Source of the DNA: Eubacteriales bacterium
GTDB taxonomy: Bacteria > Bacillota > Clostridia > Oscillospirales > CAG-272
Length of the DNA: 64,000 nucleotides
NCBI GenBank assembly: GCA_045597145.1
Contig: JAZODU010000069.1
Location: forward strand, 8,599-72,598
Direction of reading: 5' to 3'
Of the stretch, positions 2,536 through 12,711 are shown one piece after another; the first letter of the stretch is position 1; every line of letters begins with the position of its first letter. Below the pieces are notes generated by a model that made no database searches, was not told the origin of the DNA, and was given only the letters and a program-made list of their open reading frames with translations. The translations under genes were made by a program, and so were the position numbers.

Positions 2536-3732
2536 TCAATCCCCGTACAAGCAACGGATCAGGCGAAATGCCTGCTCGGCGGTGTTTTTTAAGTTGCGAT
2601 AGGCGTTTTTTGCATCCATGGCATCCTCAAGCGTGCACACGGTGCGCAAAACCGGGAAAAAGGCATCGATGCCGTGCGCGTTGCAAGCCCCCGCGTCCTC
2701 GGCGACACAGCCTGCAAACGCGATCACGGGCTTGCCATAGTGCTTGGCAAGCGAGGCAACGCCGATAGGTGCTTTTCCCATGCAGGTCTGCCCGTCAAGG
2801 CGTCCCTCACCCGTTACCACGACGTCTGCGTCCTTGATAATCTCCTCAAGATGCGTGACGCGCATCACAAGAGAGATGCCCGACTCAAGACGCGCGTTCA
2901 GATAGGTCAGAAAGGCAAAGCCCATGCCGCCGGCCGCACCCGCGCCGGGGGATTCCGCGAACGCTCGCCCCGTGGTGTCCGCGCTGAGCTTGGCGTAACG
3001 ATCAAGACACGCGTCCATGTCCGCGATCATCTCGGGAGTGGCACCCTTTTGCGACCCGAACACCGCGCTGCAGCCGCGCTCACCGCATAAAGGATTGGTC
3101 ACGTCGCACGCGACGAAAAATTCACATTCCGCAAGGGCTTCAATCGCACCGCCGCAATCGATCTGCGAGAGGTGCGCAAGCCCGCGGGCACCATGCGGGA
3201 TCTCGTTTCCCGCGGCATCCCGAAAAGAAAATCCCAGTGCCTGCAGCATGCCGACGCCGCCGTCGTTGGTGGCACTGCCGCCAATACCGACGATGAACGT
3301 CCGACAGTTGTTTTTCTCTATGGCGTGCGCGATCAATTCGCCCACGCCATAGGTCGTGGTGACGCGCGGGTCGCGCCGTGCGGCAGGAATGAGCGTGATC
3401 CCTGCCGCCGCAGACATTTCAATAATCGCCGTGCGCGTATCGGGAAGCACGCCGTACACGGCTTCCACACGCTCCCCCAAGGGGCCCGACACCCACGCGC
3501 GGCAAAGCTGACCGCCCATAGCAGCTGCCAATGCCTCGACGGTACCCTCGCCGCCGTCTGCCAAGGGGCAGACGACCGTTTCTGCGTCGGGGACGGCTGC
3601 CCCGATCCCCTCGGCAACCGCGCGCCCCGCCTCCAAGGAGGACACGCTGCCCTTAAACGAATCTATCGCGATCGCTACCTTCATAGATTGTTCTTTTTTC
3701 TTCTCGAGCAAATCAAAAAATTCCACAAACAT
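2536..3732 (-). CDS. glxK: glycerate kinase
   Basis: Glycerate kinase family pattern throughout (MKVAIAIDSFKGS, GGSATNDGG, VVTGEGRLDGQT). Start set at ATG 3732, preceded by AAGGAGA. Alternative starts are 3684 (MKVAIAID) and 3765. Confidence 0.85.
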   Translation of the reverse strand: MFVEFFDLLEKKKEQSMKVAIAIDSFKGSVSSLEAGRAVAEGIGAAVPDAETVVCPLADGGEGTVEALAAAMGGQLCRAWVSGPLGERVEAVYGVLPDTRTAIIEMSAAAGITLIPAARRDPRVTTTYGVGELIAHAIEKNNCRTFIVGIGGSATNDGGVGMLQALGFSFRDAAGNEIPHGARGLAHLSQIDCGGAIEALAECEFFVACDVTNPLCGERGCSAVFGSQKGATPEMIADMDACLDRYAKLSADTTGRAFAESPGAGAAGGMGFAFLTYLNARLESGISLVMRVTHLEEIIKDADVVVTGEGRLDGQTCMGKAPIGVASLAKHYGKPVIAFAGCVAEDAGACNAHGIDAFFPVLRTVCTLEDAMDAKNAYRNLKNTAEQAFRLIRCLYGD

Positions 3733-3766
3733 AATTCTCCTTTGTTTTTTTGATACGTTCATCATT

Positions 3767-3816
3767 ACTGCTGTAAAATGAAATTTTGAGTTTCGCTCAA
3801 AAGTAACATTTGTCCT
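3767..3816. repeat. island repeat unit, copy A
   Basis: ACTGCTGTAAAATGAAATTTTGAGTTTCGCTCAAAAGTAACATTTGTCCT, with internal hairpin TTTTGAG-TTTCG-CTCAAAA. Confidence 0.8.
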
Positions 3817-4166
3817 TAACTGTTCCCCTTTGCGGTGGTGATGGAGGCGATGAGTCTACGTCTGATCGAACCGCATTTGTTTCGCAAATCTTTATACGTG
3901 ACCTCGTCCATTTTCCCTTTTCTGAATATCAATTCGAGCCAATATTCCGTTTCAGAACACTCTTTCAAAGAGATTTCCAATTTATTTATAAAATCCGCTT
4001 TGCTTTGGGCGTATTTTGCTTCGTGAATGTTTGCTCCGATTGACGACGAGGAGCGAACAATCTGGTTGACATAAACCGAACAGCCCTTTATTTCATCACA
4101 AAGATCAGAAATTTGAATTGCAAATTCGATTGCATCTTCACGGAGTTGGTTCTCGTTATCGTTCAT
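3816..4166 (-). CDS. four-helix bundle protein (23S rRNA intervening-sequence protein family)
   Basis: 116 aa from MNDNENQL (ATG 4166, RBS AAAGGAG). Family pattern IVRSSSSIGANIHEAKYAQSKADFINKLEISLKECSETEYWLEL. The longer track ORF reaching 4418 is rejected. Confidence 0.75.
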   Translation of the reverse strand: MNDNENQLREDAIEFAIQISDLCDEIKGCSVYVNQIVRSSSSIGANIHEAKYAQSKADFINKLEISLKECSETEYWLELIFRKGKMDEVTYKDLRNKCGSIRRRLIASITTAKGNS

Positions 4167-4189
4167 TTGATAAAACTCCTTTCTTTTTG

Positions 4190-4415
4190 TCGATATGTTC
4201 GCCATTGGCGAACTCGATATATGGTCGCTTTGCGACCATTCGATATATTTCTCGCTTCGCTCGAAATTCGATATGTTGCCTGCGGCAACGAGGGTCGATT
4301 GCACCGCACTAAAGTAACGTCTCTCGCTTTGCCCACAGGGCAAAGCATATCGAGCGCGAAGTGTCATATCGAACGCAAATCGTATATCGAACGACGCGTC
4401 AGCGGCGCATATCGA
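4190..4415. repeat. dyad array of eight YATATCGAR motifs with interspersed short hairpins
   Basis: TCGATAT occurs at 4190, 4214, 4240 and 4268. ATATCGA occurs at 4347, 4366, 4384 and 4409. Hairpins lie at 4198-4212, 4222-4238, 4276-4288 and 4327-4345. Confidence 0.7.
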
Positions 4416-4433
4416 CATCGAATCCGCGGGTCA

Positions 4434-4555
4434 AAGACACGACGGATTCGACGTGGGGTCAAGAGTACAAAAGGTATATTTTTGTGTCAAAAACGGGGGT
4501 TGTAAGTCCAAAAAGTCTCAAAAGCATAGGGGGAAAGTAACATTTGTCCCTAATT
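4434..4555. repeat. degenerate rlmCD 3'-end copy plus a ~100-bp arm (junction repeat R1)
   Basis: Minus strand 4455->4435 reads HVESVVS. The arm 4456-4555 aligns with 4771-4872. Confidence 0.65.
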
Positions 4556-4630
4556 TTTAAGTGATGCTTGTGAACATAAACTGCTGTAAAACGAACTTTT
4601 GAGTTTTGATCGAAAGTCACTTTTGTCCCT
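4535..4630. repeat. island repeat unit, copy B (permuted full unit)
   Basis: AAAGTAACATTTGTCCCTAATTTTTAAGTGATGCTTGTGAACATA is followed by AACTGCTGTAAAACGAACTTTTGAGTTTTGATCGAAAGTCACTTTTGTCCCT. Confidence 0.8.
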
Positions 4631-4734
4631 GTGCAAAATCAGGGCATTTTATGATTTTGAACACAGATTTTTGAAATTTTACCTCAAAACCACTCAAAAA
4701 GGCTTGATTTTGTCTATTTTAAGGCGATTTTGAC

Positions 4735-4770
4735 TTATTTTCTCGTCAGACAAACGACACTTTCGACGTG
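4735..4770 (-). pseudogene. orphan duplicate of the last 11 codons and stop of rlmCD
   Basis: Minus strand reads HVESVVCLTRK*, against HVESVVCLSRK* at the real gene end. 4747-4770 is identical to 11356-11379 (24/24 nt). Confidence 0.85.
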
Positions 4771-4872
4771 GGTCAAGAGAGCAAAAGGTCTCAAAATCGG
4801 TCAAAAACGGGGATTGTAAAACCAAAAAGTCCTCAAACCATAGGTGGAAAGTAACATTTGTCCCTGATTTTT
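4771..4872. repeat. ~100-bp arm homologous to 4456-4555 (junction repeat R2), ending in a partial repeat unit
   Basis: Shared blocks are GGTCAAGAG, CAAAAGGT, TCAAAAACGGGG, CCAAAAAGT and GAAAGTAACATTTGTCCCT. Confidence 0.7.
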
Positions 4873-4903
4873 CAAAAAAATCTAAAAAGTTACCTTTAAC
4901 CCC

Positions 4904-4932
4904 TGGACATTTATAAAATTTTATGTTATAAT
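4904..4932 (+). promoter_or_regulatory. sigma-A-type promoter of the m5C MTase gene
   Basis: TGGACA, 17-nt spacer, TGtTATAAT (extended -10 at 4924-4932). This favours the ATG at 4963 over 4933. Confidence 0.55.
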
Positions 4933-4962
4933 ATGAGCATAAAAAATGCAGGGGGAAATGTT

Positions 4963-6279
4963 ATGCCTTATGCAATAGATTTATTTTGCGGAGCGGGTGG
5001 ATGTTCCGAAGGATTAATCCAAGCAGGTTTTCACATATTATTCAGCTCCGATATAAGCGATATGGTGGAAAAAACCTATCGCCATAGACACGAACAACTC
5101 GGTCTCATTCAAGGAAAAAATACTTGGTTTCAACGTGAAGATATTCGCAATCTAAAAGGCAAAGATATAGAAAGATATATTTCGCAGTTGGAGATATTCC
5201 AAGGCGAACCGATTCCTGAAATTGATTTGTTGATCGGTGGTCCCAGTTGTCAGGGCTTTTCTCGTGCAGGCCGTCGGGATAAATCCGATCCACGAAATAT
5301 GCTTTTCGGGGAATATGTAAGAGTGGTGAGCGAAATAAAGCCCAAATACATTGTTCTTGAAAATGTCGAAGGATTCGTAGATATGCGATTTGTCGGGTAC
5401 AAAGGTATCACGGGAATCCAGTATCCCGATGGTAGTGTCACACCTAAAATTTTAAGAAGTGAATTAAGTGAAATTGGCTATGAAACACTTGAACCTAAAA
5501 TACTGAATGCTGCGGACTATGGTGTACCCCAAAGAAGAAATCGCGTCATTTTTATTGGCTTTAGAAAAGGATTGACACCGCCTAAATATCCAGAACCTAT
5601 TATTAATTCTGCCGATTATTTAACATTGACAGAAGCCATAGGTGATTTGATTGTCAGCGACGAAATACGAGCGAGAGTAAACAAGCAAGCCTCTCAGTAT
5701 CAACTTGATAGCCAAAGAGGTCGAACTCCGAGTGCTAACGGTATGCCTATAAAGTCAACTACTCCTAAAAATACAGAGTTATCCAAACAAACCCCTATCG
5801 TCATTGAAAGATTTTCTTTGTTTGAAGAGGGTGAAACAGGAACTATGTTGAAGCGAAGAATTTTGGAAAAAGGGATTGATTTAACAGGCAAAAATGCTTT
5901 AATCACACTCTGTGCTAAAAGTTTTGCGATGTCTAACGAAGCTGTTATTACGCTCTTCAGAGAGGCTCGTGCTACGATCACTCAAATAGAAGTTTTGCTC
6001 ACAAAAAAGAACATTCGCCAAAGATGGGCTTCAAATCAGCCTTCTGCAACGATAGTCACAATAGCCGACGATTATATCAGCCCGTGGGAAGATAGGACTT
6101 TCAGTGTGCGCGAAATGGCTCGTTGTCAATCTTTTGATGATTCGTTTGAATTTTTGGGAAAACGAACAACAGGCGGTTTGCAACGCCGAGTAGAAGTTCC
6201 GCAATACACTCAAGTTGGAAATGCGGTGCCACCGTTGCTTGCAAAAGCAGTTGCATTGGAAATTAAAAAAGTTTTATAA
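4963..6279 (+). CDS. DNA (cytosine-5)-methyltransferase (R-M module 1)
   Basis: Motif I DLFCGAGG. Motif IV GGPSCQGFS. Motif VI ENVEG. Motif VIII QRRNRVIFIG. Motif X TQVGNAVPPLLA. RBS GGGGGA lies before ATG 4963. Confidence 0.9.
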   Translation: MPYAIDLFCGAGGCSEGLIQAGFHILFSSDISDMVEKTYRHRHEQLGLIQGKNTWFQREDIRNLKGKDIERYISQLEIFQGEPIPEIDLLIGGPSCQGFSRAGRRDKSDPRNMLFGEYVRVVSEIKPKYIVLENVEGFVDMRFVGYKGITGIQYPDGSVTPKILRSELSEIGYETLEPKILNAADYGVPQRRNRVIFIGFRKGLTPPKYPEPIINSADYLTLTEAIGDLIVSDEIRARVNKQASQYQLDSQRGRTPSANGMPIKSTTPKNTELSKQTPIVIERFSLFEEGETGTMLKRRILEKGIDLTGKNALITLCAKSFAMSNEAVITLFREARATITQIEVLLTKKNIRQRWASNQPSATIVTIADDYISPWEDRTFSVREMARCQSFDDSFEFLGKRTTGGLQRRVEVPQYTQVGNAVPPLLAKAVALEIKKVL

Positions 6280-6313
6280 CTCTTGACGGGGTACTTATAT
6301 AGTACCCCTTTTT

Positions 6314-7522
6314 CTATGATTTCGTCAAGTCATATTCAATAGGAGTTCCTAAAAGCAACGGCAAATCTTGCGGTTTCATTTTAAAAAGCATACCGTGGTC
6401 TCGCCATTTACCTTCGGGGGTGTAGTGTGCAGCAATGTCGACTGTAATCTTATCCGTTTCCAACAGAGGTGCTATTAAAGAAGTGTTCGGATGTTTGGTG
6501 TGTAGTACTTTATCATATCGAAAATATTCAATGCTATTATGAATTTCCGAGACTGCTTTTACCCAAAATGTTTCGTGGTGTTTAACAAGCAAAGTTTGTG
6601 CAAGACCACTGATATACCAAGCGGAAACATACCGTCTTATTTCTTCTTGTTGATACATTATTTTTAGTTTGTCATCGTTCGCCGTAACCTCTAAAACAAG
6701 GTCATATGCGTTTATATGAGTCACCTTTAATGTATCGTATAACTGTAGTCGTGCGACCGTTGTTCCTTTTGGGATTTGTATTTTTCCGTATGCATCCACG
6801 ATTTGTCTATAGGTCATTCCATCATCGGGAACTTTGGTAAACAATGTAGACTTGGTTGAATGCCTAATTACACCGTCACGCGACAAGCGAGAGGTCTTTA
6901 ACTCTATGCCCTTGTAATCAGGCGTTTTTGCATTATTCCTTGAAATACCTAATGCGTGTTCAAGCGTATCTCCTACACCGGGATCTCCGCGAGTAATCGA
7001 AGGAATAAAACCGCGATTATGTATATTCTGTATCTTGTTGAGCAATTCGCGAGCAACCACATTGTCTTGATGGACCGACTCCAGTAGAATATCATATACG
7101 AATGCTTTTTTGAATAAAGATTCTACAATTTTGGCATCAGAAAGGTTTATTACATATATTTTTTTGTTGGCTATAATGAGTGCTAAAAGGTTACAAGGAG
7201 AACAATAGTGGGTAAGTTTACTAAACCAAATTCTCGGGTCGCCCTTTTTTGTTAAAGGACGATAAAGGGAGGCAACGGTTTCTTGTACTTTATCGGGATA
7301 TACAAAATAACTTTGAACTAAAGTCTTGGCGTTAGGACCTTGATTTTGTGCCTCGTAATCGTGTATATCTTTATTCTTTAAAAGTTCGCGCACAGGAGCT
7401 GTTGCATCCATTATAGATTTACCATAACCAGTAGGCGTAGGTACGAGAAAAGCAACTGAAACACCCGTATCTGCAAAAATGGGAAGGAATTGTTCTATAT
7501 CGGTATCGGACATTAGTAACAT
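6314..7522 (-). CDS. type II restriction endonuclease, MvaI/BcnI (MutH/Sau3AI-like) catalytic domain with a ~165-aa N-terminal extension
   Basis: GDPGVGDTLEHALGISRNNAKTPDYKGIELKT matches the (G)xGxxxExxLG...PDxxxIE-x-K core. The C-terminal VDIAAHY...WRDHGMLFKM resembles the MvaI VDIRIGAY...HDHGTAFRI block, as I recall it. The gene is convergent with the MTase. Confidence 0.65.
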   Translation of the reverse strand: MLLMSDTDIEQFLPIFADTGVSVAFLVPTPTGYGKSIMDATAPVRELLKNKDIHDYEAQNQGPNAKTLVQSYFVYPDKVQETVASLYRPLTKKGDPRIWFSKLTHYCSPCNLLALIIANKKIYVINLSDAKIVESLFKKAFVYDILLESVHQDNVVARELLNKIQNIHNRGFIPSITRGDPGVGDTLEHALGISRNNAKTPDYKGIELKTSRLSRDGVIRHSTKSTLFTKVPDDGMTYRQIVDAYGKIQIPKGTTVARLQLYDTLKVTHINAYDLVLEVTANDDKLKIMYQQEEIRRYVSAWYISGLAQTLLVKHHETFWVKAVSEIHNSIEYFRYDKVLHTKHPNTSLIAPLLETDKITVDIAAHYTPEGKWRDHGMLFKMKPQDLPLLLGTPIEYDLTKS

Positions 7523-7561
7523 AGTTTAAAACTCCTTTGTTTTTCTCGATATGTTACCCCT

Positions 7562-7640
7562 AACTGCTGCAAAATGTACTTTCGAGTTTCGCTCAAAAGC
7601 AACATTTTTCCCTAATTTTTAAGTGGTGCTTGTGAACATA
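7562..7640. repeat. island repeat unit, copy C (full)
   Basis: AACTGCTGCAAAATGTACTTTCGAGTTTCGCTCAAAAGCAACATTTTTCCCTAATTTTTAAGTGGTGCTTGTGAACATA. Confidence 0.8.
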
Positions 7641-7647
7641 TCAGAGA

Positions 7648-8916
7648 TTACATTCCGTTATAGTTCTCCCATCTCCACCGCAAGAACTCTTTATTTGTGA
7701 AATCGGGAATCACAATACGAGGAGGAATCAATGCACCGTAATCCATTCTCGCCCTCGAAGATAGTTCAACAATTCCTGTTTCTGAAATACGTAAATGTCC
7801 TGTGTCGAATAAAGTATGTATGTCGGTTCTCATTGCAAATCCGTTCGCAACAGTATCTTCACCATTATACTTGAAGGGTTTTATGTGTGCAGCTTCTAAA
7901 ACCTCGGGCATCGTAACATTTGTAATTACACAACGTTGACAAGCCTTAAGTACTTCTCTTCTAAAGTTTGCTTGATTCGGTCTTGCCGTTCTCATTGTTT
8001 GAACACGTTTTCTTTCAACTTCAGATGTAACTTCTGTTGCTCGAATTTGAGCTAACGCAGATATAAGCGATTCGTCTTTGGGCTTTTGAGCAATGATTGC
8101 AGAAATTTCATCTAGTATAACGGCACTAATAGCATATTTTTCAGCCATCCTTGTGTTGCCGCCTATAAGATTGATATATCCGTAATTTGAAAGGAACAAC
8201 AAGTATTCTCGTGCTATACGCATGTCATTGGCTTCGGGGCAACAATTGGGCCATCCAATTAGAGATATTTCACCTGCCCTATACCAAAGTATGAAATTAA
8301 CATAGTCTTCTATTTCCGCATGGCATCCCGACAATGGAATAATCACTTTTATCAGTTCTTCGGTGGTGATATAACCCTGCCCTAATTCTTGAAGCTTCAT
8401 TTGAATTTCAAGGATTAGCCTTAGCGGATATAAGACCAAATTGTGTTCAAGCCAACGAGCACATTCCTGCTGACTTTGAATTTGGGCGTTAGGCAATTTA
8501 AAGGTTTGAACTGTTATTGCTGCAAACTCGGTTTGCGAAATATCATGGTCGGCGATCCTTCTACCAAATTCGGTTAATTGGATTTGCCCCGAGCGTCCGC
8601 CCGGAGGAATTAATCCCAAGGCTCTCCAATATTGTCCTGAATTTCTAATTAAATTCCGTTCGCCGGCCCTTCTTTCTAAATCCACGCCGACGGAATCTTT
8701 TATGTCATTAGATAAATCTATCAGTTCTTTTGCAAATTCATCTGAACTGTATTTCACGCCCAAAGGCTCTAACTTTCGCATTCTGAACAAAACGCCAAGC
8801 AATACAACGGGGTCATTCAATCCCTCTGTACATTGTAGGCATGCCCATTTCCATTTAAATTCGGGAAAGGGCTTTACTGGTACATAATTTTTAGGTAACA
8901 TATTATTTTTCCTCAA
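7648..8916 (-). CDS. HNH nuclease, putative restriction endonuclease of R-M module 2
   Basis: C-terminal HNH block: FRREVLKACQRCVITNV...LEAAHIKPF...NGFAMRTDIHTLFDTGHL. It is the last gene of the C-M-M-R operon and overlaps the MTase stop by 14 nt. I cannot assign the N-terminal ~300 aa. Confidence 0.7.
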   Translation of the reverse strand: MRKNNMLPKNYVPVKPFPEFKWKWACLQCTEGLNDPVVLLGVLFRMRKLEPLGVKYSSDEFAKELIDLSNDIKDSVGVDLERRAGERNLIRNSGQYWRALGLIPPGGRSGQIQLTEFGRRIADHDISQTEFAAITVQTFKLPNAQIQSQQECARWLEHNLVLYPLRLILEIQMKLQELGQGYITTEELIKVIIPLSGCHAEIEDYVNFILWYRAGEISLIGWPNCCPEANDMRIAREYLLFLSNYGYINLIGGNTRMAEKYAISAVILDEISAIIAQKPKDESLISALAQIRATEVTSEVERKRVQTMRTARPNQANFRREVLKACQRCVITNVTMPEVLEAAHIKPFKYNGEDTVANGFAMRTDIHTLFDTGHLRISETGIVELSSRARMDYGALIPPRIVIPDFTNKEFLRWRWENYNGM

Positions 8917-9829
8917 AATCGTTAAACATACGAGCTACAGCGTATCCCAATAGCGGGGGAACAGCATTACCAATTTGTCTATATACGGACGAACGATTGC
9001 CCGTAAACTCAAATCGCAAAGGAAAACTTTGCACTGTAGCAAGCTCCCTACAAGACATTCTTCGTGCTGCGTTGGGATGCGGCAAAATAACAACTCCACC
9101 TTTGCTGTCTCCTCTTGCAGTAACAGTAGGTGCGGGTTTTTCAGGATCAAGTGGACGGTGACCCAAATAACCGTTAAACTCTAATTTGTATTTTGAATAC
9201 TCATGATTCGGTAAATCGTTAGGCTGGTCGGGGTCAGGAATATTGGACAATGCCGATAAAACGCTTACCCACTTTGGTAAACCGTTACTACCGTTTTTGT
9301 CGTGTGTAGGCGACGGAAATACATATTCAAAATCCAAATCCGAACGAACACCCACAATAATCACTCTCTGTCGAGTCTGCGGAACCCCAAAATCAGCGGC
9401 GTTTAACACTTTCGCACAGACGTTATAGCCCAAATCGCGAAAATCAGAGAGAATCATCTCAAACACTTTTCCGCCTAACAAATTCGTTAATCCCTTGACA
9501 TTTTCAGCCAAGAAAAATTTTGGCTTTTTAGCATCAATGACACGAATCAGCTGTTTATACAATGCGTTTCTTGTGTCGTCCGCATGACGTTTGGTGTTTG
9601 CAACCGAAAAACCCTGACAAGGAAATCCCCCAATTACAATATCACAATTCGGAATATCTGCCTCATTGATTTTAGATATATCTTCGCAAACAATATGGTC
9701 TCCAATATTCTTTCTATATGTGTTTACCGCATCTTCGTATAAATCATTTGCCCAAATTATAGTGTGACCGGCCATTATAAAACCCAAGTCTAGACCGCCA
9801 GCACCGCTAAACAAAGATACTGCTTTCAT
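8903..9829 (-). CDS. DNA (cytosine-5)-methyltransferase (module 2, second copy)
   Basis: Motifs SLFSGAGGLDLG, GGFPCQGFS, ENVKG, QTRQRVIIVG, RRMSCRELATVQSFP and YRQIGNAVPP. Confidence 0.9.
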   Translation of the reverse strand: MKAVSLFSGAGGLDLGFIMAGHTIIWANDLYEDAVNTYRKNIGDHIVCEDISKINEADIPNCDIVIGGFPCQGFSVANTKRHADDTRNALYKQLIRVIDAKKPKFFLAENVKGLTNLLGGKVFEMILSDFRDLGYNVCAKVLNAADFGVPQTRQRVIIVGVRSDLDFEYVFPSPTHDKNGSNGLPKWVSVLSALSNIPDPDQPNDLPNHEYSKYKLEFNGYLGHRPLDPEKPAPTVTARGDSKGGVVILPHPNAARRMSCRELATVQSFPLRFEFTGNRSSVYRQIGNAVPPLLGYAVARMFNDFEEK

Positions 9830-10761
9830 CTGATTACTTCCTTTTCCAATCTTATCAATTCTTCACCTAGTAATTTTGCAAATTTGACGGGAACAGCATT
9901 GCCAATTTGCCTATAACAAGCCCCCATCGCTCCAACAAATTCAAAATTTTCCGGAAAGGTTTGAACGCTCGCACTTTCTCGAATTGTTAATCTGCGTGTT
10001 CCATTATAATGTGGTATAGCACAAACTCCGCCTTTCCCATTTCCCCGCGCCAAAATAGTAGGTGATGGCTTGTCAGGCTCTGTCTGTCTATGTCCCGTGA
10101 AATTGCGATACTCAACTTTGTAAGAAGAACAAATATGATTCAATACAGTATGCGTGCTTGCAGGGTCAGGAAAATGATCGATAGCTTCTTTTATCGAAAC
10201 CCATGCAAGAGGACTTCCACTTTTTGAGTGAGTAGGTGTGGGGAAACGAAACAACAATTCTTTCCCTATGTCTGTTCTTTGTCCGATGATAATAACTCTC
10301 TGTCTTGTTTGAGGCACACCATAATCTGCCATATTAACTAAAGTTACAGATGTGATATACCCCGCTTGTTCGAAATCATTGATGATTTGTCGAATTGCCG
10401 TCCCATTACCCAAGCTCAAAATCCCTTTTACATTCTCTGCAATGAAAAACTTAGGTTGCTTAATAAGTATTGTGTTGTAAAAAAATTTATATAGTTGATT
10501 TCTGTCATCGTCAACAGTTCTAAGAAGATTAGCCTGTGAGAATCCCTGACAAGGAAATCCACCAACTACTACATCGGCATCGGGAAGCGTATGAATATCA
10601 ATGTTTTTTATGTCATCACACACTATGTGTTCACCAATATTTTTTTTGTATGTTGCTACGGCATCTTTATCAAAGTCATTAGCCCAAATTACACTATTTC
10701 CTGCTTGAATCAACCCTAAATCCAAACCACCCGCACCACTAAATAAAGATATTATCTTCAT
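9826..10761 (-). CDS. DNA (cytosine-5)-methyltransferase (module 2, first copy)
   Basis: Motifs SLFSGAGGLDLG, GGFPCQGFS, ENVKG, QTRQRVIIIG, RRLTIRESASVQTFP and YRQIGNAVPV. It has a 4-nt overlap with both neighbours. Confidence 0.9.
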   Translation of the reverse strand: MKIISLFSGAGGLDLGLIQAGNSVIWANDFDKDAVATYKKNIGEHIVCDDIKNIDIHTLPDADVVVGGFPCQGFSQANLLRTVDDDRNQLYKFFYNTILIKQPKFFIAENVKGILSLGNGTAIRQIINDFEQAGYITSVTLVNMADYGVPQTRQRVIIIGQRTDIGKELLFRFPTPTHSKSGSPLAWVSIKEAIDHFPDPASTHTVLNHICSSYKVEYRNFTGHRQTEPDKPSPTILARGNGKGGVCAIPHYNGTRRLTIRESASVQTFPENFEFVGAMGACYRQIGNAVPVKFAKLLGEELIRLEKEVIR

Positions 10762-10976
10762 TGCGCTTCTCCTGTTTCTTTAGTTACATCCATAATATCA
10801 TCAAAACTGCATTCTAACGCATTGCAGATGCGGAGCATAATATCCATAGACACAGTTTCATTCTTGCCGAGCTTGGCAAGAGTGGTTGTTGACATATCCG
10901 TTGCAAGTCGCAGATCGGTTTTTGTCATACCCTTATCTATGAGCAATTTCCATAGTTTATTGTAGCTTACTGCCAT
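10758..10976 (-). CDS. XRE-family HTH protein, putative R-M controller (C) protein
   Basis: 72 aa with HTH MTKTDLRLATDMSTTTLAKLGKNE. It is the first gene of the operon, and its stop overlaps the MTase start. Confidence 0.7.
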   Translation of the reverse strand: MAVSYNKLWKLLIDKGMTKTDLRLATDMSTTTLAKLGKNETVSMDIMLRICNALECSFDDIMDVTKETGEAQ

Positions 10977-11008
10977 ATGTAAAACCTCGTGTTTTCAAAG
11001 TTATCTCT

Positions 11009-11037
11009 ATTATAACATATCTGTCCGCGAATTTCAA
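11009..11037 (-). promoter_or_regulatory. sigma-A-type promoter of the C-M-M-R operon
   Basis: Minus strand reads TTGAAA, 17-nt spacer, TGtTATAAT. A GAGG RBS lies before ATG 10976. An AACATATC motif (11014-11021) overlaps the -10 box. Confidence 0.6.
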
Positions 11038-11196
11038 CAAAATATCAGAGAAAACAAATATTTTATGCGTAGATTTTGATACTCAATCGGTGTGTGGAAA
11101 CATATCAAAAGCCATTTTTATCGTTGCATTACTATTTTCAAGGAAAAACGTGCAATTTCAGGTCAAAATAGCCGTTTTTGTTCGATATGTTATACT

Positions 11197-11248
11197 AAAC
11201 TGCTGTATTTTGATTTTTGACCACGGGGTGAAAATCACTTTTGTCCCT
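11197..11248. repeat. island repeat unit, copy D (diverged)
   Basis: AAACTGCTGTATTTTGATTTTTGACCACGGGGTGAAAATCACTTTTGTCCCT, preceded by TTCGATATGTTA at 11181-11192. Confidence 0.7.
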
Positions 11249-11270
11249 ACTTGAAAATTTGACAAAACAC

Positions 11271-11312
11271 AAAAAAGAACAGCCTTTTGACCGAAAAACA
11301 CGCTCAAAAGGC
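11271..11312 (-). terminator. intrinsic terminator of rlmCD
   Basis: Hairpin AGCCTTTTGA...TCAAAAGGCT (11281-11312), followed on the minus strand by a T-run (plus-strand AAAAAAGAAC at 11271-11280). Confidence 0.6.
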
Positions 11313-11343
11313 TGAAAAACGCCCGTTTTAGGGTCAAAATCGC

Positions 11344-12711
11344 TTATTTTCGGGACAGACAAACGACACTTTCGACGTGCCCTGTCCTCGGAAACATATC
11401 CACGGGCGTCACAACCCCAATCTCATACCCCAATTTTCTAAACAGCGCACAATCGCGGGCGAGCGTATCGGGACCGCAGGAAACGTAGACGATGCGCTCA
11501 AAATTCCGCGCCGCAAGGTACTCGATCAGCTCGGGCGTGCTTCCCTTGCGCGGCGGGTCCATGATGACCGTAGCACCCGAAACGTCACCGTGTGCGCTCT
11601 CTGCGCGCTCCAACAGATGCCGTGCATCGGACGCGTCACCGCAATAAAAATAAGCATTCTCAACGCCGTTACGTGCGGCGTTTTCTCTTGCGCGCGCGAC
11701 CGCCACCTCAACGATCTCGATGCCGATCACCCGATCGGCGTTCTTCGCCATGGAAAGCCCGATCGTGCCGATGCCGCAATAAAGATCCAGCACGGTTTCG
11801 CCACCCGTCAGCGCGGCTTTCTCGCGCGCCGTGGCGTAAAGCAGCTCGCACGCGTCGTGATTGACCTGATAAAACGCGCCCGCAGAAATGCAAAAGCGCA
11901 GACCGCACAGGATATCCTCGATCCATTCTCGCCCCGCCAGAAGTCGGTAGTCCTTCCCAAGCACCACGTTGGTGTTTTGCGTGTTGACGTTGAGCATCAC
12001 GCTCTTAACGCCCGAAAATTTTCCGCACAAGCCATCGGCAAGCCGCTCTTCGTTCGGCAAGCTCTTGCCGTTGACCACGAGGCAGACCATGGTCTCACCC
12101 GTCCCCTCGCCCATGCGCAGATAGATGTGGCGCAAAAGCCCCTTACGCGTTTCCTCATCGTACGCTTTGATGCCGTTTTGGTCGCAAAACGCGCATATGT
12201 ACGACAAAATCTCCCCGAACACGGGGGGCTGGAGGCGGCAATCCGTGCACGGCACGACGCGGTGCGTGCCCGTAGCGTAAAAGCCCGCCACCATGCCGCT
12301 CTTGCCGTTTGCCACGGGGTACTGCGCCTTGTTGCGGTAGCCCGTGAGCCGCCCCGTGGAAAGCACGGGATCGACGTGCACGTCAAAAAGCCCCGCCTTG
12401 CGGAAGGCGTTTTCCACGTAGTTGCGCTTAAGCTCCAGCTCGTGCTCGTATTTGACGTTTTTATACACGCAGCCGCCGCATCCGCGCGCCGCGCAAACGT
12501 ACCCGTCCTCGCGCAGGCGCGAGGGGGTACGCATTTTTTCGATCCGTGCGACAAGGTAATTCTTCGTCACCTTGATGATGCGCGCGTCCAATAGGTCGTC
12601 GGTCACGCCGTCGCTCACGAACACGACCTGTCCCTCGGGAGTGTGCGCCACGCCGAAGCCGAGGTTGTTGATCTCCTCGATAGACAGCGTGATAACGTCA
12701 TTCTTTTGCAT
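11344..12711 (-). CDS. rlmCD: 23S rRNA (uracil-5-)-methyltransferase, RumA/RlmCD family
   Basis: 455 aa with an N-terminal TRAM-like domain, a Cys cluster (CAARGCGGCVY) and a C-terminal SAM MTase (LDLYCGIGTIG, DPPRKG). Confidence 0.85.
   Translation of the reverse strand: MQKNDVITLSIEEINNLGFGVAHTPEGQVVFVSDGVTDDLLDARIIKVTKNYLVARIEKMRTPSRLREDGYVCAARGCGGCVYKNVKYEHELELKRNYVENAFRKAGLFDVHVDPVLSTGRLTGYRNKAQYPVANGKSGMVAGFYATGTHRVVPCTDCRLQPPVFGEILSYICAFCDQNGIKAYDEETRKGLLRHIYLRMGEGTGETMVCLVVNGKSLPNEERLADGLCGKFSGVKSVMLNVNTQNTNVVLGKDYRLLAGREWIEDILCGLRFCISAGAFYQVNHDACELLYATAREKAALTGGETVLDLYCGIGTIGLSMAKNADRVIGIEIVEVAVARARENAARNGVENAYFYCGDASDARHLLERAESAHGDVSGATVIMDPPRKGSTPELIEYLAARNFERIVYVSCGPDTLARDCALFRKLGYEIGVVTPVDMFPRTGHVESVVCLSRK

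Follow-up and report, generated by a model that had tools for sequence, protein, structure and literature searches.

The question raised by this locus is what part a short unit, repeated between the genes of a low-GC island, plays in the arrangement of those genes, and whether it is this unit that delimits the gene cassettes of the island. In the window, i.e. the whole 64-kb stretch of DNA analysed, the 18-nt core of the unit, AAAGTAACATTTGTCCCT, is matched six times at no more than three mismatches (at 3800, 4534, 4613, 4848, 7596 and 11231), all copies being on the plus strand and confined to the island, with 0.01 expected from shuffles, and no unit was found in the remainder of the window. 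The five copies listed in the first-pass annotation are all present at the stated coordinates, and the extended homology amounts to 80% over 94 nt between copies A and C, 86% over 49 nt between A and B and 93% over 45 nt between the left part of B and the right part of C. The unit reaches farther on the gene-proximal side than first described, having the structure ..TACAGCAGT-N6-TAACATATCGA-RBS (e.g. 7546-7613 and 11182-11248). The internal TTTTGAG/CTCAAAA hairpin attributed to it is intact in copies A and C only, being imperfect in B and absent from D and from both core-only copies, and copy B, formerly taken for a circularly permuted unit, is instead a cassette right end (core 4534-4551 and trailer 4552-4578) adjoining a truncated unit (4579-4630).

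The repeats that were said to bracket every cassette are real, but the true delimiters, missed at the first reading, are copies of the end of rlmD. The last 11 codons of this gene (HVESVVCL..*) were found by pattern match three times on the minus strand, with 0 expected, namely at 11357-11379 (the end of the live gene) and at 4748-4770 and 4433-4455, both within the island and each with a conserved right-end segment (RE) before it. In the related loci RE, which consists of ~25-70 nt of non-coding sequence straight after the cargo stop codon, precedes every internal copy of the gene end (att). The copies att1 and att2 are identical across 23 nt, and the homology pairs of the window are 4580-4770 with 11197-11379 and 4430-4558 with 4745-4872. 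Similarity to rlmD starts at the CAC immediately past RE, and the direct repeat in locus L123 begins within the Glu codon, at its GA. The insertion point lies in the HVE codons, and att comprises precisely the 11 terminal codons of rlmD; in all hosts the boundary falls at one and the same codon, matching the position of the known integrase attB. The palindrome arms of att covary and are kept together in the distal copies, which in other loci are mostly of the TCC type. What is targeted is the last 11 codons of rlmD/rumA; the repeated unit is not, contrary to one earlier proposal, a duplicate of the target.

The unit itself (LE) is the conserved left-end or leader segment, forming the front end of small recombinase-less gene cassettes. 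It always lies immediately 5′ of the RBS, which suggests a role in expression; neither a sigma70-like promoter nor a canonical terminator was found in it, RNAalifold gave no consensus structure, and its hairpins show no structural covariation beyond that of shuffles. Since cassettes lacking LE are integrated at the same place (L131, L129, ORF6 of L089 and others), LE appears to be an optional cassette leader with a function in expression or insulation and possibly in mobilisation, integration being defined by att and RE, so it is probably not the recombination site that it was suggested to be.

Read on the minus strand, the window is best explained by the order rlmD, cassette 1, cassette 2, the displaced rlmD end with the W-hairpin/4HB/LE segment, and glxK, where cassette 1 consists of two restriction-modification (R-M) modules fused at LE/core and cassette 2 has been emptied. 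The rlmD/rumA gene (11344..12711), coding for a 23S rRNA U-C5 methyltransferase (Pfam tRNA_U5-meth_tr and TRAM; homologues named RlmD), serves as the integration target with its 3′ end and terminates in att1 (11344..11379, CACGTCGAAAGTGTCGTTTGTCTGTCCCGAAAATAA, HVESVVCLSRK*, pattern match), i.e. the live last 11 codons and stop, of the cassette-borne ‘AGT’ type. It is followed by the spacer of cassette 1 (11249..11343, GCGATTTTGACCCTAAAACGGG.. family), which has the same start after internal att copies in L104, L054, L057 and L018, and by LE copy D (11182..11248, ..TACAGCAGTTTAGTATAACATATCGA), a diverged, hairpin-less variant found also in L029. R-M module 2 (7648..10976), which has its own sigma70-like promoter at 11037-11009, includes according to Pfam an HTH C-protein (10758-10976, with a 98.5% identical C-protein in a cassette of L064), two C5 methylases (9826-10761 and 8903-9829) and an HNH/AlwI-like nuclease (7648-8916), all on the minus strand. 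The ‘trailer’ behind it (7614..7647, TGATATGTTCACAAGCACCAC joined to TTAAAAATT) resembles the rlmD codons immediately before att, its GATATGTTTCC being common to real rlmD genes (11390-11400 in the window, L073, L096 and L129), and may be a decoy left arm of attB. LE copy C (7546..7613), a full unit, leads directly into the RBS and the start codon (ATG) of the gene for the MvaI/BcnI-like nuclease (6314-7522, minus strand) in R-M module 1 (4933..7522), the C5 methylase of which (4933/4964-6279, plus strand) is convergent with the nuclease (both by Pfam).

The right end of cassette 1 (4771..4865) is composed of a core fragment (4848-4865, the partial copy of the first-pass annotation) and a long RE (4771-4847) ending ..CTCTTGACC, and the same ‘core-CCACCTATGG..-RE’ right end is found in L124, L018, L026, L032, L086 and L094. 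Then come att2 (4735..4770, CACGTCGAAAGTGTCGTTTGTCTGACGAGAAAATAA, HVESVVCLTRK*, pattern match), an internal rlmD-end copy of repeat family D8, and the spacer of cassette 2 (4631..4734, GTCAAAATCGCCTTAAAATAGAC.. family) with a CCCTG/CAGGG hairpin, 4677-4770 being homologous to 11286-11379. The cargo of cassette 2 has been lost, LE copy B (4579..4630) being truncated past CAGCAGTTTA and followed by the right end of the empty cassette (4456..4578, with RE at 4456-4533; repeat D4, in which 4456-4558 matches 4770-4872 at 82%), and a comparable LE-RE fusion is present in L085. att3 (4399..4455, HVESVVSLTRGFDVDMRR*, pattern match), a displaced rlmD end of the ‘TCC’ type and the left arm of a decayed palindrome, is probably the original end of rlmD. 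LE copy A (3750..3817), in a class-2 upstream context, contains in its core the stop codon of the four-helix-bundle (4HB) gene and continues into the RBS of glxK (2536..3732, Pfam Gly_kinase 5e-145), a host gene for glycerate kinase, also on the minus strand, where GC is back up to the host level and the distal edge of the array is reached. The LE(C)/trailer fusion and the empty cassette resemble the outcome of ordinary recombination or deletion between repeats.

The LE pattern was found in at least 119 Clostridia MAG contigs with the same architecture behind a RumA/RlmD gene, about 2 such stretches being expected by chance (author’s estimate), and gave 0 matches in viral contigs. The order att (the rlmD 3′ copy), spacer, LE, RBS, cargo ORF, RE, att is repeated up to six times, with six cassettes in tandem in L089, and the gene immediately 5′ of the array is of the RumA type, and on the same strand, at 81 of the 121 related loci. 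Typically there is one LE locus per genome, behind rlmD and on the same strand. The arrays occur in more than 100 species-level genomes of uncultured Clostridia (ruminant and gut), and LE is highly identical across hosts from Oscillospiraceae, Christensenellaceae and Acutalibacteraceae whereas the flanking host DNA is not. The junctions RE-att-spacer-LE (~280 nt) are 85-95% identical between genomes, and the cassettes (0.4-3.5 kb, usually with one ORF) are tandem, co-oriented and compact and carry diverse cargo, as is expected of integron cassettes. They differ between conserved junctions in related genomes, which bears out the earlier idea of a cassette-accreting hotspot.

The 119 cassettes harbor 54 cargo families that are shared between distant hosts, with within-family cargo identity of 80-98% across hosts in which RlmD is only 30-60% identical, and 4HB identity does not correlate with RlmD identity. 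In L124, R-M module 1 follows the rlmD gene of a different organism and forms one cassette on its own, with 36-nt att repeats (1 mismatch) on either side; R is 93% and M 79% identical there to that of the window, and the module is also found in L125 and L126. These features speak for horizontal mobility of the cassettes. The majority of the cargo is small uncharacterised ORFs, and the defensive cargo is represented by R-M systems, with R-M genes in several further cassettes (e.g. NgoPII), and by matches to PD-T4-3 and LmuA; Pfam, NCBIfam and PADLOC scans found no conjugation or mobilisation genes in the cargo. Among the loci gathered there is neither an excised circle nor a same-species empty/occupied pair for a canonical cassette, the sole same-species set (L208-L217) having no canonical junctions.

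The reading preferred here, with a probability of roughly 0.7, is that recombinase-less cassettes integrate site-specifically into the end of rlmD/rumA, with LE as a leader segment and catalysis presumably supplied in trans. In this scheme att is formed by the last 11 codons of rlmD/rumA (CAYGTCGARNNNGTCGTKTGTCT..), and a full cassette consists of its own 11-codon copy with the stop, a spacer, LE, RBS-cargo and RE (..ATACCTTTTGnnnTCTTGACC). Upon insertion rlmD would receive the cassette’s version of its end and the former end would be shifted downstream, so that the target would be regenerated and the cassettes would stack head-to-tail, co-oriented with rlmD. An unlinked recombinase would act in trans to catalyse both excision and integration, the likeliest candidate being a rumA-specific large serine integrase from a co-resident ICE, IME or prophage. 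The first-pass annotation had likewise, in one of its two alternatives, supposed the recombinase to be unlinked, and this agrees with a crude motif scan that turned up no recombinase gene, whatever its type, in the window or the 227 loci (1.9 Mb, most loci covering only 8 kb), no serine-recombinase motif in any array locus and no integrase gene across the right end; Pfam revealed no recombinase among the island genes. The 23-36 nt repeats are longer than a serine integrase needs and suit a tyrosine recombinase or homologous exchange equally.

Similar behavior is known for staphylococcal SCC and pseudo-SCC elements, which are located at the 3′ end of rlmH (orfX) and moved by Ccr large serine recombinases. 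In both cases a 23S rRNA methyltransferase gene is targeted at its 3′ end, and direct repeats that include this gene end flank each element, so the site is regenerated; SCC elements likewise accrete in tandem (PMC11470126), include recombinase-less members moved in trans and carry defence genes. The rlmD cassettes differ in the target gene and host clade, are far smaller and share a stereotyped junction, and no ccr-like gene was seen in any rlmD array. Firmicutes ICEs and IMEs with a single large serine integrase use as attB the rumA site 11 codons from the stop, at a GA (or CA) dinucleotide; they have rumA-like codons at the left end, and tandem insertions have been described for them (PMC4120198, PMC4701971, PMC4735348, PMC11578063). 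Tn1549/vanG/CTn5, ICESluvan and IME_SpnAP200_rumA share with the cassettes the insertion point, the HVE codons, the GA/CA dinucleotide and the left end with rumA-like terminal codons. These elements, however, are 10-80 kb long, possess an integrase across attR and transfer or mobilisation genes and alter the C-terminus of RumA, whereas in the cassettes no integrase or transfer genes were seen, the restored rlmD ends in a stop codon, and RE is non-coding. As att coincides with this published attB, the best inference is that the cassettes would be mobilised in trans in the manner of ψSCC or CIME elements. CIMEs of the ICESt1 family, i.e. integrase-less DNA between attL and attR at a gene 3′ end, a description that the rlmD cassettes also answer, accumulate in tandem and are mobilisable by an incoming element of the same specificity (PMC5704250). 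CIMEs are viewed as decayed ICEs, each of them idiosyncratic, whereas the rlmD cassettes are uniform and streamlined.

This uniform format in more than 100 genomes and with at least 54 cargo families speaks for a system that is maintained, not for debris. A stronger version, considerably less probable than site-specific integration by a borrowed enzyme though not to be taken lightly, is that the arrays, far from being ICE debris, are an integron-like platform dedicated to gene capture in gut Clostridia, anchored at the rlmD stop region and served by an unlinked recombinase, in which LE would be a purpose-built leader or a transfer/processing signal and the W-hairpin/4HB module would be a functional part, e.g. 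a nucleic-acid-binding factor recognising its own W words.

Homologous recombination alone is unlikely to account for the arrays. It would treat the ~280-nt junctions as portable homology for RecA-dependent swap, gain and loss of cassettes with no dedicated recombinase, similarly to the ‘minimal mobile elements’ that lie between conserved Neisseria genes. Such exchange is consistent with the identity of the junctions between genomes, the LE/core fusions and one cargo deletion in the window, the recombinase not found by the crude motif scan, and the difference between L208 and L210 (same species), where gain or loss is bounded by ~103-nt direct repeats. For a first insertion behind a naive rlmD, however, homology is limited to 23-36 nt and to one side, and single cassettes are nevertheless found behind rlmD genes that are 30-60% identical (L001, L124 and L131); the boundary, moreover, stays at one codon coinciding with the integrase attB, and a copy at a secondary site (L219) retains an att-like end.

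A true integron or CALIN, with the unit acting as a folded attC-type single-strand site for an IntI-like tyrosine recombinase encoded elsewhere, is very improbable. The resemblance lies in the arrays of small co-oriented, mostly uncharacterised single ORFs with a conserved element between them and cargo tight from RBS to stop, in the empty cassettes and in the inverted repeat within the unit. The attC analogy drawn at the first reading fails, since the junction fold (z = −1.1) is no more structured than shuffles and the hairpins lack covariation and an RNAalifold consensus; inspection revealed no R″/R′ (RYYYAAC/GTTRRRY) core sites, the boundaries are host-gene 3′-end copies, cassettes without the unit exist, and the arrays, found in Clostridia and sited at the coding end of a host gene, have no intI, attI or integrase motif, the tyrosine recombinase included (window and 227 loci, crude motif scan).

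Helicobacter pylori R-M genes are reported by Nobusato and Kobayashi to undergo ‘insertion with long target duplication’, and direct repeats of tens of bases do flank the R-M modules in the window and in L124, with R-M genes in several other cassettes. That the repeats are target duplications made by R-M units is even less credible, given the cargo diversity: the same att/RE/LE flanks surround dozens of unrelated non-R-M cargos, so the R-M-specific mechanism suggested earlier does not hold, and the repeat is one and the same gene end throughout, a fixed site common to all cargo types in many genomes and not an arbitrary target. Least credible of all is a dispersed REP/MITE or a mere shared promoter or terminator placed between the modules by coincidence, since the unit, although short, AT-rich, provided with an inverted repeat and always just 5′ of an RBS, is locus-specific (only in the island within the window, and typically at one locus per genome behind rlmD) and not dispersed genome-wide, the outcome that the first-pass annotation had named as refuting its idea, is conserved across several host families when the flanking DNA is not, and contains no sigma70-like promoter or canonical terminator.

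Integrons are regarded as essentially absent from Firmicutes, and the evidence supports the view that the rlmD arrays collect genes in an integron-like manner in bacteria not known for integrons. They represent a stereotyped single-gene cassette array at a fixed chromosomal site in uncultured Clostridia (ruminant and gut) and contain a large stock of small shared genes, most of them uncharacterised. The segments att, RE and LE could be used as a sequence-defined handle for mining mobile accessory genes in metagenomes, and the cassettes could supply a rumA-specific recombinase with a natural collection of minimal attP substrates mobilised in trans.

The W/hairpin region (4190..4432, minus strand) contains four TCGATAT words, a centre and four GC-rich hairpins each with ATATCGA, extending up to the RBS of the 4HB gene (3816..4166, minus strand; 23S_rRNA_IVP/TIGR02436, Pfam 1.4e-22, NCBIfam 6e-26). 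It has no Rfam match, no match with E < 0.5 being present in the island and the sole above-threshold match in the window being tRNA-Pro outside it; its fold (z = −6.8) makes the module a strongly structured element tied to the poorly understood ‘23S rRNA IVS protein’ family. The 4HB gene lies directly upstream of LE at 51 of the 121 loci. Many very short contigs carry the gene, so the arrays are likely to contribute to the poor assembly of rlmD-adjacent regions in metagenomes.

Horizontally shared cassettes have accreted in tandem at the stop region of rlmD, both site- and orientation-specifically, and restore the end of the rlmD gene. In the window they lie within the island, a segment (about 3750-11343) with a GC content of ~40% compared to 55-60% in the flanks, which is bounded by two minus-strand host genes, glxK (2536-3732) and rlmD (11344-12711). 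Pfam searches bear out the gene content described in the first-pass annotation: a four-helix-bundle (4HB) gene (3816-4166), assigned to the 23S_rRNA_IVP/TIGR02436 family by Pfam and NCBIfam, restriction-modification (R-M) module 1 with a C5 methylase on the plus strand and an MvaI/BcnI-family nuclease, and R-M module 2 with an HTH C-protein (10758-10976), two C5 methylases and an HNH nuclease. All five copies of the repeat unit claimed there (hereafter LE, with copies A to D) were recovered in place, and its 18-nt core AAAGTAACATTTGTCCCT has six matches with no more than 3 mismatches, all of them on the plus strand and within the island, against 0.01 expected by chance. When the window was compared with itself, extended similarity was found between 3732-3824 and 7527-7620 (80%), 3767-3815 and 4580-4628 (86%), and 4534-4578 and 7596-7640 (93%). 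The internal hairpin attributed to the unit holds in part, as the TTTTGAG..CTCAAAA inverted repeat is intact in copies A and C and not elsewhere, while copy B, regarded earlier as a circularly permuted unit, is actually a right-end trailer/core adjoining LE(B).

In the self-comparison, homology was also seen between 4677-4770 and 11286-11379 and between 4430-4558 and 4745-4872. On the minus strand these segments include copies of the final 11 codons of rlmD (also named rumA), overlooked earlier and referred to here as att. The first, att1 (11379-11344, CACGTCGAAAGTGTCGTTTGTCTGTCCCGAAAATAA, HVESVVCLSRK*), is the live rlmD end, and the other two are att2 (4770-4735, CACGTCGAAAGTGTCGTTTGTCTGACGAGAAAATAA, HVESVVCLTRK*) and att3 (from 4455 downwards, CACGTCGAATCCGTCGTGTCTTTGACC.., HVESVVSLTR..). 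A degenerate att pattern matched exactly these three rlmD-end sites in 64 kb and none in shuffled sequences.

Read on the minus strand, the locus consists of rlmD with its cassette-type end (att1); cassette 1, composed of a spacer, LE(D), R-M module 2 with its own promoter, a segment named the trailer, LE(C), R-M module 1, a core fragment and a long right-end segment (RE); att2; an emptied cassette 2, composed of a spacer, LE(B) cut off after CAGCAGTTTA, the trailer, the core and RE; att3, which is a displaced end of the kind found distally in other loci; and finally the W-hairpin region, the 4HB gene, LE(A) and glxK. The right end of the type core-CCACCTATGG..-RE is also present in six related loci from other genomes (L124, L018, L026, L032, L086 and L094). 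The trailer starts with GATATGTTTCC, i.e. with the rlmD codons located directly upstream of att, and its sequence suggests that it is a left arm of attB, copied and carried along, which on R-M cassettes may act as a decoy taken by a cargo-less mini-element. Ordinary recombination between LE/core repeats, or a deletion between them, would best account for the fused R-M modules and for the empty cassette.

The trailer motif, GATATGTT(T)C..CAC followed by TTAAAAATT before a core fragment, was observed at 7614-7647 and 4552-4578 of the window and in L018, L026, L032, L086 and L105, and its opening codons (DMFP) precede att in real rlmD genes. Cargo-deleted cassettes in which LE is joined straight to RE or to the trailer are located around 1694 (oriented) in L085 and at 4456-4630 in the window. 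A near-consensus extended -10 promoter with TG (11/12 matches) precedes the methylase of R-M module 1 at 4904-4932 (plus), and another such promoter precedes the R-M module 2 C-protein gene at 11009-11037 (minus), so the R-M cassettes carry their own transcription signals.

The same architecture was found in other genomes. In L001, whose RlmD is 86% identical to that of the window, a single GIY-YIG gene lies behind rlmD, with the order of rlmD end, ~110-nt spacer, LE, ribosome-binding site (RBS) and gene, conserved right end and second rlmD-end copy; the LE unit is absent in L002 (RlmD 85% identical). A scan of one genome per species with the pattern TRCAGCAGT-N6-TAACATATCGA, which corresponds to the side of the unit nearest the gene and is written in rlmD orientation, gave matches in at least 119 genome stretches, about 2 being expected by chance according to our estimate. 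Among the matches listed, nearly all come from Clostridia, Eubacteriales, Oscillospiraceae, Christensenellaceae or Acutalibacteraceae MAGs from ruminant and other guts, and in all of those listed LE abuts the RBS and start codon of a different gene. Directly upstream, on the same strand, 81 of 121 loci encode a RumA/RlmD homologue (30-86% identical to that of the window), many of the others being truncated blocks. L089 comprises rlmD, W-hairpins, 4HB, LE, ORF1, RE, att, spacer, LE, ORF2 and so on up to ORF6, followed by a host kinase gene. The junction between cassettes (~280 nt) consists of RE, att (23-36 nt), a variable spacer and LE, where RE, AAAATATACCTTTTGGCTTTACAACCCCCGTTTTTGGCACAAAAATATACCTTTTGGTCTTATGACC, begins at the cargo stop codon, and at least the proximal RE motif precedes every internal att copy in the whole data set.

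Viral contigs gave no matches to the LE and RE patterns, and no match to the junction was found in plasmids and phages. Exact-protein look-ups for the RlmD and 4HB of the window matched no record, a metagenome scan with the same RlmD returned no relative above 72% identity, and the same-species contigs reached through 4HB look-ups belong to lineages without canonical LE/RE junctions. Of 80 RlmD loci sampled from metagenomes without bias (42-72% identical), four bear cassette signatures, all among the closer relatives, which confines the system to a single lineage.

Several cassettes (for example L131, L129, L089 ORF6, L081, L114, L117 and L013) lack both the spacer and LE and are reduced to att (23 nt), RBS and ORF, RE and att, so att and RE are the constant elements and LE is dispensable. 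On the left, the likeness of cassette junctions to real rlmD genes starts at CAC, directly after RE, and the direct repeat on either side of an L123 insertion opens at the GA of the Glu codon. Distal att copies of the TCC type have a long palindrome with the att codons as its left arm, and since the two arms vary in concert between loci without being separated, the exchange is placed 5' of the Ser codon; on the right, LE-less and LE-bearing cassettes diverge after ..GTCGTTTGTCT. These two limits therefore set the crossover within about 23 nt, probably at the 5' edge of this stretch. A different cassette type is present at the same rlmD site in L123, where the in-frame insertion is located between 11-nt direct repeats GAAAGTGTTGT. 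This insertion (11344-11950), with neither LE nor RE, is a ~560-nt ORF fused in frame into the rlmD end and results in a 639-aa RlmD fusion.

When the first ORF of each of 119 cassettes was taken, 54 families were obtained; most of these cargo families have no Pfam or NCBIfam match, and 6 of 50 cargo representatives match defence models, including type II REase, PD-T4-3 and LmuA. Cargo proteins are 80-98% identical within a family, while RlmD of the hosts shares 30-60% identity with that of the window. The identity of 4HB does not correlate with that of RlmD, and in 51 of 172 pairs 4HB is more than 85% identical yet RlmD is less than 60% identical. R-M module 1 of the window is found as a single cassette in L124 (R 93% and M 79% identical), in the order of rlmD-att, spacer, LE, R, M, core, RE, att and host gene, with one base different between the two 36-nt att copies; the left junction of this cassette is also present in L125 and L126, and in L127 a 77%-identical R-M module lies directly behind another RumA-type gene. 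The L064 cassette (att 2065 to RE/att 5514-5561, oriented) encodes a C-protein 98.5% identical to that at 10758-10976 of the window, paired with a methylase of only ~30% identity, a pairing that speaks for R-M parts being swapped as modules behind a common controller gene. Among contigs of the same species, a 167-aa gene distinguishes L208 and L209 from L210 and is bounded by ~103-nt terminator-plus-promoter direct repeats.

LE is cassette-borne, optional and always adjoins the cargo RBS. The whole junction is not structured (DNA fold z = -1.1), and an alignment of 122 LE copies gave no consensus structure, with covariation equal to that of shuffles, so that an RNA structure of LE is not supported. 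LE matched no Rfam family even at a relaxed threshold and contains no sigma70-like promoter, and inspection by eye for sigma54-, sigmaD- and sporulation-sigma-like spacings found none consistent across copies. Our first guess is a putative expression or insulation leader, a putative transfer or processing signal also being possible.

The W region (~4190-4455 of the window, minus) is located between the displaced rlmD end and the 4HB gene. It contains three to four copies of a 7-nt word W followed by three to six copies of its reverse complement W', with variable GC-rich hairpins between the copies, and this layout is seen in 27 of 28 loci examined. The word is TCGATAT, GCGATAT, GTGATAT, GTGAAGT or TGAATTG depending on the locus, and 4HB subtypes partition exactly with it (85-99% identity among members of a word family, 38-66% from one family to another). 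The W region of the window folds far better than shuffles (z = -6.8) and has no Rfam match. Other W regions were observed in L089 (2216-2545), L076, L054, L066, L007 and elsewhere. The W-4HB module opens with a palindrome of up to 18-20 bp, the left arm being the HVESVV codons of the upstream gene end (att regions of L107, L045, L026 and L063; L208 9690-9735; L219 6690-6735; window 4410-4455), and both arms appear to be element-carried as they covary between loci. In L218-L227 (e.g. L219 6640-7400), a 4HB gene 89% identical to that of the window, with a TCGATAT array and an att-like palindrome, lies outside rumA, behind a Trans_reg_C regulator gene and before mnmG, and looks like a secondary-site insertion. 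The length of the W array is polymorphic within a species, two contigs of which differ by a ~230-nt internal tandem duplication (L212 2970-3520 compared to L208 9690-10010). The 4HB proteins at least 86% identical to that of the window form 120 listed clusters (P0241-P0360), one with 1758 members, and nearly all come from contigs of less than 2 kb, suggesting that metagenome assemblies routinely break at these repeat-rich arrays.

The 3' end of rumA as an integration hotspot, tandem accretion and non-autonomous att-bounded elements are already known. Firmicutes ICEs and IMEs (Tn1549, vanG, CTn5, ICESluvan) have single large serine integrases that target rumA, a recognised hotspot, 11 codons before the stop at a GA (or CA) dinucleotide with attL CACGTGGAGTGCGTAGTGTT, and the left ends of these elements mimic the RumA terminus (PMC4120198, PMC4701971, PMC4735348, PMC11578063). 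Integrase-less cis-mobilisable elements (CIMEs) and tandem SCC-type elements at a staphylococcal chromosomal site (PMC5704250, PMC11470126) are precedents for accretion and movement in trans. A full-text literature search found no description of a uniform, mostly single-ORF, recombinase-less cassette family with the stereotyped RE-att-spacer-LE junction, of the arrays that such cassettes form, up to six at a time, in over 100 Clostridia genomes, or of a W-hairpin/4HB module tied to the rumA/rlmD site.

Motif scanning of the window and of 227 loci (1.9 Mb in all) detected no recombinase except for one small serine recombinase, which sits in a locus without an array. We tentatively suggest, with a probability of roughly 45%, that the cassettes would be moved in trans by a rumA-specific serine integrase. 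A tyrosine recombinase as the enzyme seems rather unlikely, and homologous exchange alone, as an account of these arrays, even less probable. Tn7-like targeting (attTn7 downstream of glmS) was rejected, as each junction duplicates 23-36 nt of the gene end and not a 5-bp target, and the idea of RE as a leftover of the 3' end of an integrase gene was likewise rejected: no codon-like pattern was found in it, and it is an internally duplicated ~27-nt motif. Over-long RlmD homologues (P0014 and P0060) were also considered as signs of integrase-bearing ICEs, but neither has an integrase, P0060 being an in-frame cassette fusion and P0014 a natural C-terminal extension. An extension of ~93 aa (..KATYDEIKEYVLENTGLKVSQLYIAQIKRKYGI..) follows the HVE motif in some RlmD homologues (L122 11330-11650) and is a natural domain and not an insertion.
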